Both the position numbers and the translations under genes were made by a program. DNA of 7,371 bases, from the NCBI GenBank assembly GCA_000004985.1, contig GG739143.1; one strand, written 5' to 3'. Source of the DNA: Naegleria gruberi. Taxonomy: Eukaryota. Every line of letters starts with the position of its first letter. Within the stretch, counting starts at the first letter, position 1. Shown piece after piece: positions 1 to 7,371 of this stretch. The notes under the pieces are model-generated. The model was given only the letters and a program-made list of their open reading frames with translations. It did no database searches and was not told where the DNA came from.

Positions 1-236
1 CAACTTTTTGATAGGTTTCAAAACAAACTGGCAGAAACCTCTTTCCAACTGTCTTGCTTTGAGTCTTTCAACCATTTACCACTCTCAGCATCAAAATAAT
101 TATCTCCCCACAATTTTTCTGCCACAACATTCACATCCATTCCAAACTTTTTCGAATAAAACTTGGCAAAATCATGCAAATTAAAAGCCCAACCTCCCAA
201 TGCAGATCCAAAAGTAACATGACCATTCTGTGGATC
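1..236 (-). pseudogene. eEF2-family (elongation factor 2-like) gene fragment. It is 5'-truncated at 236 and frameshifted near 46-52, and continues past the window start.
   Basis: The minus-strand translation from 236 down to about 48 reads DPQNGHVTFGSALGGWAFNLHDFAKFYSKKFGMDVNVVAEKLWGDNYFDAESGKWLKDSKQDS. This aligns residue by residue with the eEF2 G'-region (yeast: [55 protein letters not shown]). That frame then hits TGA at 18-20. Homology continues in the next frame from about 48 down to 1 as LERGFCQFVLKPIKKL (human eEF2: LPRTFCQLILDPIFKV; yeast: LERAFNMFILDPIFRL). This indicates a 1-nt indel. Upstream of 236 all three frames are closed (TAA at 237-239 and others), so the GTPase domain is missing. 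Codons are non-optimal (gga, gtg, gcc, tcg, gag), unlike a highly expressed EF2. Confidence 0.7.
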
Positions 237-254
237 TTAGGATTATCATTTTGT
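236..254. repeat. Left copy of a perfect 19-bp inverted repeat (cttaggattatcattttgt).
   Basis: The exact reverse complement occurs at 1828-1846. The match does not extend beyond 19 bp in either direction. The copy abuts the truncation point of the eEF2-like fragment. Confidence 0.9.
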
Positions 255-362
255 ATTTAAGGAATTTAACAGCTGAAGGTTATCTATATGGATTCTATAT
301 ATTACATTTTGATCATTTTTTGCCAGTTTTTATGATTTTACATATTTTAGTTTGTTATCTCA

Positions 363-1792: not shown

Positions 1793-2410
1793 TTATCTCT
1801 CAGTTTTCATAAAGAAAAATATATAAAACAAAATGATAATCCTAAGTTTTTGAACAATCTCCCATTCTGCTTGATTTTCAACACTATTGAATTGGGTAGA
1901 TGGTGTAGAAAGATCCATACACAATCTCCAAATACAAGTCAAACATCTTTGCAAGACGTGGTAATGTTGCTTGGTCATTCTTGTTCTGATTGGTTGATTA
2001 TTTGTTACTGGGAGTGGGCTGTTTCTATCGCTACCAGAACTAGTACCGAAAGGATTGGATGAACCTACAGATGGTGGAGCACTATTAGGTCCGTTATTAA
2101 CTTGGTAAATGGATTGAATGGTACTGATTGGTTGGTATAATTGCAAAATGGAAATCATTAATTTGTAAACGTGTATTCTGTAAACATAATTCCAAATAAG
2201 TTTCAATCTTTCGCAACCAGTATTTCTATTCAAATTATTATTAATCAAAACATCACACAATAAATCCAAACAGAAGAGGGAAGTATCTAAGTCTCTTTCA
2301 TAATAGTAATAGGTTGAGGTAGTTGCATTTTGTTGTTTGGTTGTTTTCAATGTGAACAAGTGAGGAGCAGAATGAATGTGCCAATTAAAAAATGCAAGAC
2401 GATAAATCAT
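1793..2410 (-). CDS. Hypothetical protein of about 205 aa from the ATG at 2410-2408. The ORF is open to 2452 but that codon is TTG. It is tentatively Mediator Med7-like.
   Basis: A 219-codon open frame sits in a region where the plus strand is full of stops. The central region uses strongly yeast-preferred codons (gct cca cca tct gta ggt tca tcc ... aga). The protein has an S/P/N/G-rich low-complexity middle. The motif pair LDLLCDVLI ... ERLKLIWNYVYRIH, with spacing of about 22 residues, resembles the Med7 core LDLLDILI ... EDLKLLFVHVHHL. Total size matches Med7 (about 220 aa). The last 17 codons (LRIIILFYIFFFMKTER) are encoded by the inverted repeat and AT-rich DNA, so the native C-terminus may have been replaced. 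Confidence 0.5.
   Translation of the reverse strand: MIYRLAFFNWHIHSAPHLFTLKTTKQQNATTSTYYYYERDLDTSLFCLDLLCDVLINNNLNRNTGCERLKLIWNYVYRIHVYKLMISILQLYQPISTIQSIYQVNNGPNSAPPSVGSSNPFGTSSGSDRNSPLPVTNNQPIRTRMTKQHYHVLQRCLTCIWRLCMDLSTPSTQFNSVENQAEWEIVQKLRIIILFYIFFFMKTER
1828..1846. repeat. Right copy of the perfect 19-bp inverted repeat (acaaaatgataatcctaag).
   Basis: This is the exact reverse complement of 236-254. It lies in the last 17 codons of the minus-strand ORF 1793-2452, where coding-like codon usage gives way to AT-rich sequence. Confidence 0.9.
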
Positions 2411-2494
2411 CAATTCCCGAAGTTGTTGTTGATGATGAAGAAACAAATCCAACTATTCCAGGACATGAATCCATCATTGAACAAAATCCTTCTT
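2392..2494 (+). CDS. Possible 5' end of a plus-strand gene (MQDDKSSIPEVVVDDEETNPTIPGHESIIEQNPS...) that runs into the assembly gap.
   Basis: The ATG sits in an aaaaaATGc context. All 34 visible codons are yeast-preferred (gaa gtt gat cca att tca caa), giving an acidic N-terminus. It overlaps the 5' end of the minus-strand ORF 1793-2410/2452, so at most one of the two start assignments is correct. Confidence 0.25.
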
Positions 2495-5400
2495 NNNNNN
2501 NNNNNNNNNNNNNNNNNNNNNNNNNNNNNNNNNNNNNNNNNNNNNNNNNNNNNNNNNNNNNNNNNNNNNNNNNNNNNNNNNNNNNNNNNNNNNNNNNNNN
2601 NNNNNNNNNNNNNNNNNNNNNNNNNNNNNNNNNNNNNNNNNNNNNNNNNNNNNNNNNNNNNNNNNNNNNNNNNNNNNNNNNNNNNNNNNNNNNNNNNNNN
2701 NNNNNNNNNNNNNNNNNNNNNNNNNNNNNNNNNNNNNNNNNNNNNNNNNNNNNNNNNNNNNNNNNNNNNNNNNNNNNNNNNNNNNNNNNNNNNNNNNNNN
2801 NNNNNNNNNNNNNNNNNNNNNNNNNNNNNNNNNNNNNNNNNNNNNNNNNNNNNNNNNNNNNNNNNNNNNNNNNNNNNNNNNNNNNNNNNNNNNNNNNNNN
2901 NNNNNNNNNNNNNNNNNNNNNNNNNNNNNNNNNNNNNNNNNNNNNNNNNNNNNNNNNNNNNNNNNNNNNNNNNNNNNNNNNNNNNNNNNNNNNNNNNNNN
3001 NNNNNNNNNNNNNNNNNNNNNNNNNNNNNNNNNNNNNNNNNNNNNNNNNNNNNNNNNNNNNNNNNNNNNNNNNNNNNNNNNNNNNNNNNNNNNNNNNNNN
3101 NNNNNNNNNNNNNNNNNNNNNNNNNNNNNNNNNNNNNNNNNNNNNNNNNNNNNNNNNNNNNNNNNNNNNNNNNNNNNNNNNNNNNNNNNNNNNNNNNNNN
3201 NNNNNNNNNNNNNNNNNNNNNNNNNNNNNNNNNNNNNNNNNNNNNNNNNNNNNNNNNNNNNNNNNNNNNNNNNNNNNNNNNNNNNNNNNNNNNNNNNNNN
3301 NNNNNNNNNNNNNNNNNNNNNNNNNNNNNNNNNNNNNNNNNNNNNNNNNNNNNNNNNNNNNNNNNNNNNNNNNNNNNNNNNNNNNNNNNNNNNNNNNNNN
3401 NNNNNNNNNNNNNNNNNNNNNNNNNNNNNNNNNNNNNNNNNNNNNNNNNNNNNNNNNNNNNNNNNNNNNNNNNNNNNNNNNNNNNNNNNNNNNNNNNNNN
3501 NNNNNNNNNNNNNNNNNNNNNNNNNNNNNNNNNNNNNNNNNNNNNNNNNNNNNNNNNNNNNNNNNNNNNNNNNNNNNNNNNNNNNNNNNNNNNNNNNNNN
3601 NNNNNNNNNNNNNNNNNNNNNNNNNNNNNNNNNNNNNNNNNNNNNNNNNNNNNNNNNNNNNNNNNNNNNNNNNNNNNNNNNNNNNNNNNNNNNNNNNNNN
3701 NNNNNNNNNNNNNNNNNNNNNNNNNNNNNNNNNNNNNNNNNNNNNNNNNNNNNNNNNNNNNNNNNNNNNNNNNNNNNNNNNNNNNNNNNNNNNNNNNNNN
3801 NNNNNNNNNNNNNNNNNNNNNNNNNNNNNNNNNNNNNNNNNNNNNNNNNNNNNNNNNNNNNNNNNNNNNNNNNNNNNNNNNNNNNNNNNNNNNNNNNNNN
3901 NNNNNNNNNNNNNNNNNNNNNNNNNNNNNNNNNNNNNNNNNNNNNNNNNNNNNNNNNNNNNNNNNNNNNNNNNNNNNNNNNNNNNNNNNNNNNNNNNNNN
4001 NNNNNNNNNNNNNNNNNNNNNNNNNNNNNNNNNNNNNNNNNNNNNNNNNNNNNNNNNNNNNNNNNNNNNNNNNNNNNNNNNNNNNNNNNNNNNNNNNNNN
4101 NNNNNNNNNNNNNNNNNNNNNNNNNNNNNNNNNNNNNNNNNNNNNNNNNNNNNNNNNNNNNNNNNNNNNNNNNNNNNNNNNNNNNNNNNNNNNNNNNNNN
4201 NNNNNNNNNNNNNNNNNNNNNNNNNNNNNNNNNNNNNNNNNNNNNNNNNNNNNNNNNNNNNNNNNNNNNNNNNNNNNNNNNNNNNNNNNNNNNNNNNNNN
4301 NNNNNNNNNNNNNNNNNNNNNNNNNNNNNNNNNNNNNNNNNNNNNNNNNNNNNNNNNNNNNNNNNNNNNNNNNNNNNNNNNNNNNNNNNNNNNNNNNNNN
4401 NNNNNNNNNNNNNNNNNNNNNNNNNNNNNNNNNNNNNNNNNNNNNNNNNNNNNNNNNNNNNNNNNNNNNNNNNNNNNNNNNNNNNNNNNNNNNNNNNNNN
4501 NNNNNNNNNNNNNNNNNNNNNNNNNNNNNNNNNNNNNNNNNNNNNNNNNNNNNNNNNNNNNNNNNNNNNNNNNNNNNNNNNNNNNNNNNNNNNNNNNNNN
4601 NNNNNNNNNNNNNNNNNNNNNNNNNNNNNNNNNNNNNNNNNNNNNNNNNNNNNNNNNNNNNNNNNNNNNNNNNNNNNNNNNNNNNNNNNNNNNNNNNNNN
4701 NNNNNNNNNNNNNNNNNNNNNNNNNNNNNNNNNNNNNNNNNNNNNNNNNNNNNNNNNNNNNNNNNNNNNNNNNNNNNNNNNNNNNNNNNNNNNNNNNNNN
4801 NNNNNNNNNNNNNNNNNNNNNNNNNNNNNNNNNNNNNNNNNNNNNNNNNNNNNNNNNNNNNNNNNNNNNNNNNNNNNNNNNNNNNNNNNNNNNNNNNNNN
4901 NNNNNNNNNNNNNNNNNNNNNNNNNNNNNNNNNNNNNNNNNNNNNNNNNNNNNNNNNNNNNNNNNNNNNNNNNNNNNNNNNNNNNNNNNNNNNNNNNNNN
5001 NNNNNNNNNNNNNNNNNNNNNNNNNNNNNNNNNNNNNNNNNNNNNNNNNNNNNNNNNNNNNNNNNNNNNNNNNNNNNNNNNNNNNNNNNNNNNNNNNNNN
5101 NNNNNNNNNNNNNNNNNNNNNNNNNNNNNNNNNNNNNNNNNNNNNNNNNNNNNNNNNNNNNNNNNNNNNNNNNNNNNNNNNNNNNNNNNNNNNNNNNNNN
5201 NNNNNNNNNNNNNNNNNNNNNNNNNNNNNNNNNNNNNNNNNNNNNNNNNNNNNNNNNNNNNNNNNNNNNNNNNNNNNNNNNNNNNNNNNNNNNNNNNNNN
5301 NNNNNNNNNNNNNNNNNNNNNNNNNNNNNNNNNNNNNNNNNNNNNNNNNNNNNNNNNNNNNNNNNNNNNNNNNNNNNNNNNNNNNNNNNNNNNNNNNNNN

Positions 5401-5507
5401 NNNNNNNNNNNNNNNNNNNNNNNNNNNNNNNNNNNNNNNNNNNNNNNNNNNNNNNNNNNNNNNNNNNNNNNNNNNNNNNNNNNNNNNNNNNNNNNNNNNN
5501 NNNNNNN
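2495..5507. other. Assembly gap of 3,013 N. Its true size is unknown.
   Basis: It is an uninterrupted run of N. The long ORFs reported across it are artefacts of N being translated as X. Confidence 0.99.
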
Positions 5508-6192
5508 CAAATTCTAATTTAATGTTATTCATGAGAAGAGATGCAACAAATAGCTCTATTTCATCATTAGGAATAACTTTGACAAAATCTGTAATGAACG
5601 AGTAGTATGTTTGGTCACTTGGGCAAATAGTAGAGTAAAACGAAAGATTTTTCATTGATTCCATAACAAGTTCCTGTCTACGCACGATCGTTTTTGCAAA
5701 ATAAGAGAGATAGAGTTGAGATAAACCTTCAATCCAGTATCTTTCATTTTCAAAGTATTCGATATCAAATTGTTGCTTCATATTATTGGCAACATCGCCA
5801 CCATCAATATTTCTAAAAGTATTAAAAACACTCTTCAGTTCATTCCAAATATTGTCGTTCTTGGGACTATTCTCCAATATTGTTGAATAGATTTCGTAAT
5901 TGTGCATTATTTGTGTGTTTCGTTCTCCCTTAATGTTCTTGATGGACATTGAAAAAAACACCAAAGCAAGAGCCTCCCTTAGTCTTTGTTTTTGAAATAA
6001 TGCAAATGATTGTTCATTCACTCTCTGTTCAAATGTTACACTGCTCTGAAGAAACTCTGTATGTAATGCGAGAGTAGGATGTTCAATAATGCACTGACAT
6101 ATTATTAAGGCAGTTTGATCATCTGTGTTATCAACGGCATTTTCGGCCTGTACAGAGTAATCCTTAATATGTAATGATACTCTTTCTGACAT
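5508..6192 (-). CDS. N-terminal 228 codons of a large unidentified protein, which continues into the gap.
   Basis: The 685-nt frame is open from ATG 6192-6190, in a caacaaaaaaaATGtc context, to the gap edge. Yeast-like codon usage and a normal amino-acid composition argue against a chance ORF in roughly 33% GC DNA. I could find no recognisable family motif. Confidence 0.7.
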
Positions 6193-6592
6193 TTTTTTTG
6201 TTGCAATTGTATTAATTTCTCAGAAATGAGTAGTAGCCTCCTAAGAGATGATTTCAGTCCTCTCACATATACTTTATACTATCCAGAGTTTCATCTACTC
6301 ACCAGTCCTCAATTTTCTATTACACAGAAATTGTTAAGAGTTTAATAAGTAAATGTTTTGGTATAGAAAACCTTCCATCAATATCAAGACTACAATGATC
6401 ACCACTCGTAGAACCTTAGGAAGTTCAATTCTATTAAGGAGTGATATAATTTGTGTGTCCAGAATCCATGGTGTTTGGAGGTTTGGATCAATTTCTAAAT
6501 TTACTACTTTCTAAAAATATTACACAACTTGTGAATTAATTTTCAATCAATCTGAAACAAATTCAAAAATACTAAAAAAAAACAAACAATAT
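6193..6592. promoter_or_regulatory. Divergent intergenic or promoter region shared by the minus-strand large gene and the plus-strand eIF4A-like gene.
   Basis: A 400-bp non-coding stretch lies between two divergently oriented ATGs. It contains TATA-like stretches (gatataattt near 6444; tatactttatact near 6268) and an A-rich leader before 6593. Confidence 0.4.
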
Positions 6593-7363
6593 ATGAATAG
6601 TTTCGATAATTTATTGTTGACAGATGATCTCTTGAGAGGAATATATGGCTATGGTTTTGAAACCATGAGTTCTATCCAACAAGAAATATTAAATCCACAA
6701 CAACAACAAACACAACCATCACAACAACAACCATCAAACAGTTCAATGATCGTTCAAGGTCGATCAGGAGAGGGCAAAACCATTGGATTAATTATTAAAG
6801 TATTGAAAACAGTTGATTTTCAAAAGGATGATGATGATAATGGTGTAGAATTGCAAGGTTTAATTCTTGTTCCGAATGAATATTTAGGAAAACAAATAAC
6901 CAAAGCCATGATTTACTTGGGTGAATATATTAGAAATGCAACAATTTCTGATAATGTGAATGAAAATCCGAGAATTCTCATAACCACTCCATCAATAGTC
7001 ATTGAAAAGAAGATTAATGTATCCAAATTGAAAATTCTAGCATGTGATGAAATGAATGTCATGTTACAAATTGGATCACCAACTAGAAGATGTATTAAGA
7101 GAATTTTACAACAAATTCCAAACGAAACTGAAATTATTTGTGTTGGTTCAAGTAAATTGCCACCAGAATGTTATATACATGATCAGCATTTGAAACATTC
7201 ACGTATCATTCAACAAGATAGTGAATTGGGAAGAAATATTTCTGAAAGTTTTGTTTATTGTCCAAAATTGGAGCAAAAACTTGCAACATTGAAGGAACGT
7301 GTCAACACTACTTTTCCATCCAATGTAATATTTTGTAATAATTCTAAAAACAAGGAGAAATAG
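6593..7363 (+). CDS. eIF4A-family DEAD-box paralogue with degenerate catalytic motifs, either a pseudo-helicase or a decaying copy. It ends at an in-frame TAG inside the expected RecA2 domain.
   Basis: [20 protein letters not shown] (4-23) is nearly identical to the eIF4A Q-motif region ([20 protein letters not shown]). The P-loop is GRSGEGKT (6758-6781) rather than AQSGTGKT. Motif Ia is PNEYLG (6872-6889) rather than PTRELA. Motif Ib is TTPSIV rather than GTPGRV. Motif II is DEMN (7046-7057) rather than DEAD. Motif III is GSS (7145-7153) rather than SAT. The C-terminal [14 protein letters not shown] aligns to eIF4A TQAVIFCNTRRKVE. The frame is intact for 256 codons and the A-rich start context is good. 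Confidence 0.75.
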   Translation: [256 protein letters not shown]

Positions 7364-7371
7364 AAGAGATT

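Follow-up and report, generated by a model that had tools for sequence, protein, structure and literature searches.

An eEF2-like exon at the edge of a small Naegleria gruberi scaffold and its in-frame copy in the same genome

The scaffold and its genes

In Naegleria gruberi, the window analysed here, a stretch of 7,371 bp, makes up one complete unplaced scaffold. It comprises two contigs (1-2494 and 5508-7371) with 3,013 N between them, and carries both a divergent eEF2-like gene and a divergent eIF4A-like gene. The features are listed in Table 1.

Table 1. Features of the 7,371 bp scaffold
Feature	Position	Strand	Details
eEF2-like exon, second frame	1..48	minus	LERGFCQFVLKPIKKL; leaves the scaffold at its left end; EFC49643.1 has ...KQDSLERGFCQFVLKPIQKVLQT... 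in one frame
Second single-base deficit against the annotated copy	10..11	none	PIQKV becomes PIKKL; 10 nt from the scaffold end
AA run with one base missing against the annotated copy ('frameshift')	47..48	none	47 nt from the scaffold end
eEF2-like exon, first frame	49..235	minus	(Y)PQNGHVTFGS...SGKWLKDSKQDS; residues 104-165 of EFC49643.1
Candidate 3' splice site, phase-1 intron	236..237	minus	Putative; AG right upstream of the homology end, cctaAG/AT CCA CAG
Inverted repeat, left arm	236..257	plus	CTTAGGATTATCATTTTGTATT; starts exactly at the homology boundary and AG
Stops in the coding frame	237..248	minus	TAA 237-239, TAA 243-245, TGA 246-248
(TA)7-centred motif copies	358-377, 648-667, 732-751, 1343-1362, 1692-1711	none	In the AT-rich interval
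Inverted repeat, right arm	1825..1846	minus	Within the final 18 codons of ORF 1793-2452 (minus strand)
N gap	2495..5507	none	3,013 N, 41% of the window; could in principle hide eEF2-like upstream exons
DEAD-box-like ORF, EFC35570.1	6593..7363	plus	256 aa, 100% identical to EFC49459.1

Coding sequence of the eEF2 family, amounting to approximately 78 residues, occupies positions 1-235 on the minus strand. The first frame reads (D)PQNGHVTFGSALGGWAFNLHDFAKFYSKKFGMDVNVVAEKLWGDNYFDAESGKWLKDSKQDS from 235 to 49, continues with WKEVSASLF and is closed by a TGA at 18-20; the eEF2-like reading goes on in the second frame from 48 to base 1. The initial annotation had described an eEF2-family fragment of about 78 codons that needs a change of frame, and both points are borne out, the first by PDB and HMMER matches and the second at 47/48 in the sequence as given.

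The best solved-structure matches to the joined 79 residues are canonical eEF2 proteins. Searched against the PDB with phmmer, the fragment is closest to Chaetomium eEF2 (7old, residues 206-284, E 4.8e-22) and also matches yeast eEF2 (EFT1/2; 1n0u, E 1.2e-16), with eEF2 chains as a group ranging from 4.8e-22 to 1e-11. Snu114/EFTUD2 and EFL1/Ria1, which belong to the same EF2 superfamily, match clearly more weakly than eEF2 (E 2.4e-13 at best for Snu114 and 4.3e-11 for EFL1). A HMMER scan of 1.84 billion representative proteins returned 315 matches at E<=1e-10, with top identities of 42-59%. By these scores the eEF2-family match is far above chance and the fragment is nearer to the eEF2 subfamily than to Snu114 or EFL1/Ria1. 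The alignment covers canonical eEF2 residues ~204-284, the end of the G domain together with the eukaryote/archaeal insertion, named G'' by Atkinson 2015 (PMC4342817), to which the exon segment 49..235 corresponds. The W of KKW and the R.F.QF.L.PI motif are common to the fragment and canonical eEF2, and identity to the latter is ~50% over the fragment and ~40% over the full-length annotated twin described below.

The gene at the other end of the scaffold has a twin as well. The 256 residues of EFC35570.1 are the first 256 of EFC49459.1, a 375-aa DEAD-box-like protein encoded on a 941,567-bp scaffold. The stop that ends the ORF in the window, TAG at 7361-7363, arises from one missing T, and once this base is restored the sequence reads K-L-E-E-I as in EFC49459.1. 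The annotated EFC35570.1 is a truncated model of a protein that in the twin continues to 375 aa. The gene is one of three N. gruberi paralogues (P0004, P0005 and P0006; ~49% mutual identity) with 28-30% identity to eIF4A-type helicases and with DEMN or DEMD rather than DEAD as motif II.

The N gap is flanked by two further minus-strand ORFs, 1793-2452 (219 codons) and 5508-6192 (at least 228 codons), which may be parts of one ~4.4-kb gene. No significant Pfam or PDB relatives were found for either, and their interpretation as transposon proteins was set aside on that ground. For ORF 1793-2452 there is a sub-threshold match to a TFIIH C1-like domain (22.3 bits; cut-off 28.9) and one weak BLASTP match, to residues 176-209 of EFC49643.1 (E 0.016). 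As a missing upstream part of the eEF2-like gene, or a second eEF2-like relic, this ORF was rejected on hhalign comparison with the family alignment (probability 0.13).

The annotated copy and the single-base deficits

The gene behind the fragment is already known, deposited as EFC49643.1 (XP_002682387.1; P0177), an N. gruberi 'predicted protein, partial' of 718 aa on a 941,567-bp scaffold. It was found by searching with NAEGRDRAFT_32442 (P0013), the best Naegleria match of the fragment at 59% identity. In a word-index search the 79-aa fragment matched nothing but two unrelated fragments from protists; the Naegleria proteins, missed there, were recovered by an exhaustive representative search and then the follow-up search with NAEGRDRAFT_32442.

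EFC49643.1 contains ...AEQPEQIYPQNGHVAFGSALGGWAFNLHDFAKFYSKKFGMDVNVVAEKLWGDNYFDAESGKWLKDSKQDSLERGFCQFVLKPIQKVLQT..., and its residues 104-181 correspond to the fragment in the window, 61 of 62 residues being the same in the first frame. With tblastn, residues 104-167 fall on window positions 233..42 (95% identity, E 6.7e-40) and residues 162-181 on positions 60..1 in the other frame. The sole amino-acid difference is a Thr in the window (ACT, 213-215) for an Ala in EFC49643.1, where the KQDS-LERGF junction lies in a single frame. The shared exon is preceded in this protein by 103 residues, INILDCPGRLE...AEQPEQIY, a G-domain remnant, and is followed by ~537 residues extending through domains II-V. 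The Pfam domains GTP_EFTU (partial, profile 71-176), GTP_EFTU_D2, EFG_III and EFG_IV are above cut-off, and EFG_C, at 24.8 bits, is slightly under its cut-off of 27.9 bits. Judged by its sequence, EFC49643.1 is not a decayed ORF. The copy in the window differs from it in that it ends at the scaffold edge and, as far as it is sequenced, has no upstream exons.

The addition of one base at 47/48 (AGTTGG to AGTTTGG on the minus strand) yields ...KQDSLERGFCQ... and ...KDSKQDSLERGFCQFVLKPI; repaired in this way the sequence reads ...KQDSLERGFCQFVLKPI, identical to EFC49643.1. Likewise, one C added at 10/11 (minus strand CCTATC^AAAAAG) restores the KPIQKV of EFC49643.1, and with repair at both sites the match to EFC49643.1 is exact through KPIQKV. 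The T missing from the DEAD-box-like gene is a third single-base deficit, at 7361/7362, 10 nt from the other end of the scaffold. All three deficits against the annotated copies are thus no more than 48 nt from a scaffold end and there are none in the interior, where ~900 coding bases comparable with annotated copies contain 0 indels and 1 substitution.

The end of a scaffold usually rests on the tail of one read, and the frameshift is therefore taken to be a base-calling artefact. Since all three deficits are confined to the scaffold ends, it is most likely an end-of-read artefact, and real disabling mutations are disfavoured for the same reason. We consider it very probable, from the distribution of the deficits, that the frame change at 47/48 reflects base calling and not gene decay. 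A tiny intron in place of the frameshift was also considered, the candidate being 23 nt (GTAAAT...AAAG), and was rejected: it would drop the conserved G-K-W, and the annotated twin reads through it.

The initial annotation had interpreted the fragment as a relic or decaying duplicate with an internal frameshift. Sequencing error is the better reading of the frameshift, which lies 47 nt from the end and is one of three deficits confined to scaffold ends. The relic itself is unsupported: EFC49643.1 has the same exon in frame, with 103 residues upstream and more than 530 downstream. A pseudogene in the sense of a gene left with no intact copy does not fit either, an in-frame 718-aa copy of the same gene being present in the same genome.

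The boundary at 235/236 and its possible explanations

Upstream of the exon, all frames had been said to close at 237-254. This holds for the coding frame, which closes at 237-248; on the minus strand the two remaining frames stay open until stops at 257-259 and 280-282. The stops start at an AG compatible with an intron acceptor, and the wall of stops is therefore not in itself a truncation. A T joined to the AT across the boundary would encode Tyr103 of EFC49643.1 (...EQIY/PQNGH), and an AG is expected by chance at the end of the homology in an estimated ~5% of cases. A putative exon-intron boundary fits the end of the homology better than a random breakpoint does; AAG is a weak acceptor.

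None of the 103 upstream residues of EFC49643.1 is encoded on either strand of the sequenced window (tblastn, E<=20), and neither an upstream exon nor a GT donor was found in 236-2494. With these residues absent, an intron would have to exceed ~2.26 kb and extend into the N gap, or else the scaffold is structurally different. The 219-codon ORF at 1793-2452, on the same strand, stands between the exon and the gap. Scans of metagenomes with EFC49643.1 and with an exact 25-mer spanning the boundary gave no matches. That this copy truly differs in structure beyond the 5' edge of the exon is possible, although we think it unlikely.

As for what had been called a precise 5' truncation, the sequenced 236-2494 does lack the upstream exons, and the stops taken as its mark start at a plausible acceptor. 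As for the missing GTPase domain, searches with tblastn, using a yeast eEF2 sequence and three Naegleria paralogues, found no G-domain coding elsewhere in the sequenced window, and intact GTPase motifs (G1, switch I, G3 and G4) are absent from it, but the twin EFC49643.1 does have a G-domain remnant. The domain seems to be missing because the window holds one exon only, together with a gap that leaves 41% of it unsequenced.

The boundary also coincides with the start of an inverted repeat. The arms match exactly over 19 nt and nearly exactly over 22-24 nt, CTTAGGATTATCATTTTGT(A)TTTA, and have no similarity beyond 24 nt. Two matches were obtained in 0 of 200 shuffles, and inverted matches of 19 nt or more occurred in 4 of 300 simulated sequences. 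No target-site duplication or other direct duplication flanks the arms. Excision of 236-1846 to rejoin the flanks was tried and rejected, as it gives no continuous reading frame for either gene. The repeat could delimit a 1.6-kb element or be a shared intron-end motif; a plain intron leaves it unexplained, and it therefore counts against the intron reading. The interval 236-1846 has a GC content of 23-30%. Between the arms lie all five occurrences of a 20-35-nt motif that has (TA)7 at its centre and similar surrounding sequence (TTCTAATATATATATATATTTCAAAA-like), and no structured RNAs or tRNAs were found in this AT-rich interval.

What the exon is, that it has an annotated copy in frame and that the indels cluster at the scaffold ends are direct observations. 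Together with the boundary they are probably best explained if window positions 1-235 are the clipped edge of a redundant scaffold, on which one internal exon of EFC49643.1 was assembled a second time, with the frameshift an under-call. The scaffold copy would be either a haplotype variant or unmerged leftover reads. The frame change at 47/48 would be a single-base under-call in low-quality scaffold-end sequence, involving no mutation, and the stop-rich DNA from 236 upward would be non-coding sequence preceding the exon, in the simplest case the 3' end of an intron.

It is also conceivable, though on balance we doubt it, that the fragment is a true pseudogene fragment in line with the initial annotation, either a real, recent partial duplicate or a haplotype-specific disrupted allele, the 5' exons of which were cut off by an insertion or rearrangement bounded by the inverted repeat; this reading would hold regardless of how the frameshift arose. 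The absence of the upstream exons from 236-2494 would be accounted for, as would the unusual repeat that starts where the homology ends and the right arm of which interrupts the tail of another ORF. Orphan scaffolds often consist of reads left unmerged owing to structural differences, and the Thr/Ala substitution at 213-215 lies well inside the scaffold. However, an insertion of this kind is accompanied by no target-site duplication, the removal of 236-1846 does not join the flanks into a continuous frame, and the repeat is only ~24 nt long with no further similarity, a length of 19 nt being attained in 4 of 300 simulations. The near-100% protein identity to the main copies suits the same locus equally well, and the scaffold-end indels indicate poor sequence quality exactly where decay had been proposed.

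A third explanation is that the first contig is an assembly chimera, in which reads from the eEF2-like locus and reads from the locus of ORF 1793-2452 were joined via AT-rich repeats, making the junction biologically meaningless. The tiny scaffold, its 3-kb gap, the error-rich ends and the low GC content of 236-1846 with its five (TA)7-centred motifs are all in keeping with such an error. Against this, the motifs are too short for overlap of Sanger reads, and the 19-nt repeat has matching flanks on neither side, which does not correspond to a simple overlap join. In addition, EFC49643.1 and EFC49459.1, the twins of the genes at the two ends of the window, are on scaffolds of the same length, 941,567 bp. 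The N. gruberi genome is ~41 Mb, and a random chimera would draw both end genes from one such scaffold in ~2% of cases (941 kb / ~41 Mb). True linkage of the end genes is favoured because both twins sit on a scaffold of the same length, and a chimera appears improbable. The accession numbers of EFC49643.1 and EFC49459.1 are 184 apart, approximately half of the ~360 genes expected on 941 kb; speculatively, the two genes could still be adjacent if those of one strand precede those of the other in the record.

Under the favoured reading, of a redundant scaffold with an under-called base, there is a more general caution. Where a frameshift and the lack of a domain coincide at the very edge of a small scaffold in a draft assembly, gene decay should not be concluded.

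A Naegleria family of eEF2-like proteins with degenerate GTPase motifs

EFC49643.1 belongs to a family with NAEGRDRAFT_32442 (EFC46271.1) and EFC36859.1 (P0294), the latter two of which are encoded at loci different from that of the fragment's gene and have the UniRef title 'Elongation factor 2'. The three are 49-61% identical to each other and 39-40% identical to C. elegans eEF2. The signature of the fragment (GWAF.L.DFAKFYSK, EKLWGD.Y.D.E.G.W and LERGFCQF.LKPI) is common to them. N. gruberi therefore has at least three eEF2-like genes of this type, with the five-domain EF2 layout and degenerate G motifs, and the existence of the family is established at the level of sequence. It has been reported that N. 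gruberi has several versions of eEF2, often highly divergent, and the supplementary listing for this organism (Additional file 2) gives 9 eEF2 and 12 eEF1A entries, with Snu114 and Ria1 entered separately from eEF2 (Atkinson 2015, PMC4342817).

The P-loop (G1), AHVDHGKS in canonical eEF2, is CGEYASGKS or CGEPSSGKS in NAEGRDRAFT_32442 and EFC36859.1, and lies outside the partial model of EFC49643.1. Switch I, present in canonical eEF2, is missing from the Naegleria paralogues. In switch II (G3) the canonical DSPGH is replaced by DCPGR or DCIGR, the catalytic His having become Arg, with DCPGR in EFC49643.1, where G4 is NKLE instead of NKxD. The Pfam score for GTP_EFTU is 42-58 bits in the paralogues (42 in EFC49643.1), compared with 171 for C. 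elegans eEF2. The His of domain IV that carries diphthamide in eEF2 (H-R-G-G-G-Q), a site outside the window, is kept in EFC49643.1 (IHRGAGQIIP) and EFC36859.1 (IHRGTGQ) and lost from NAEGRDRAFT_32442 (ALRRSTGQ). These proteins are derived from eEF2 and very probably unable to hydrolyse GTP as eEF2 does.

With its GTPase motifs in this state, the gene encoding EFC49643.1 is not that of the working translocase. The part of the initial annotation that saw a long-diverged paralogue and not the working EF2 stands, given the ~40% identity and the degenerate motifs of the twin. That the window should instead hold the organism's working eEF2 gene, harmed by assembly errors alone, is hardly credible: the top database matches are eEF2 proteins, but the divergence from C. 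elegans eEF2, the altered P-loop, switch I, DCPGR and NKLE motifs and the low GTP_EFTU score all speak against it, as do the nine eEF2-class N. gruberi proteins already listed (Atkinson 2015, PMC4342817).

The gene model of NAEGRDRAFT_32442 is without ~45 residues (NKxD through ...ST...) that are present in EFC49643.1 and EFC36859.1, reading IILEN/VVFGS at this point. This probably stems from a mis-predicted intron, near the position at which the exon in the window starts.

A protein more than 90% identical to EFC36859.1 (P0176) is encoded by an uninterrupted ORF of 780 codons, with no introns, in an ENA metagenome contig (ERZ929261 k127_177344, 314-2656). It shares the signature of the fragment and the five-domain layout with degenerate G motifs. 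As this ORF is intact in a Naegleria-like organism from an environmental sample, the family is maintained outside strain NEG-M.

Apparently nobody has asked what the function of these GTPase-degenerate Naegleria eEF2-like proteins is, and it is here, outside the window, that the wider biological interest lies. We regard as unlikely the combined proposition that a 1.6-kb segment bounded by 19-24-nt inverted repeats severs a real haplotype-specific eEF2-like allele or duplicate from its 5' exons and that Naegleria also maintains a family of GTPase-dead eEF2-like proteins. If it is true, such proteins could act on ribosomes without GTP hydrolysis, the tip of domain IV being intact in two of the three members examined.
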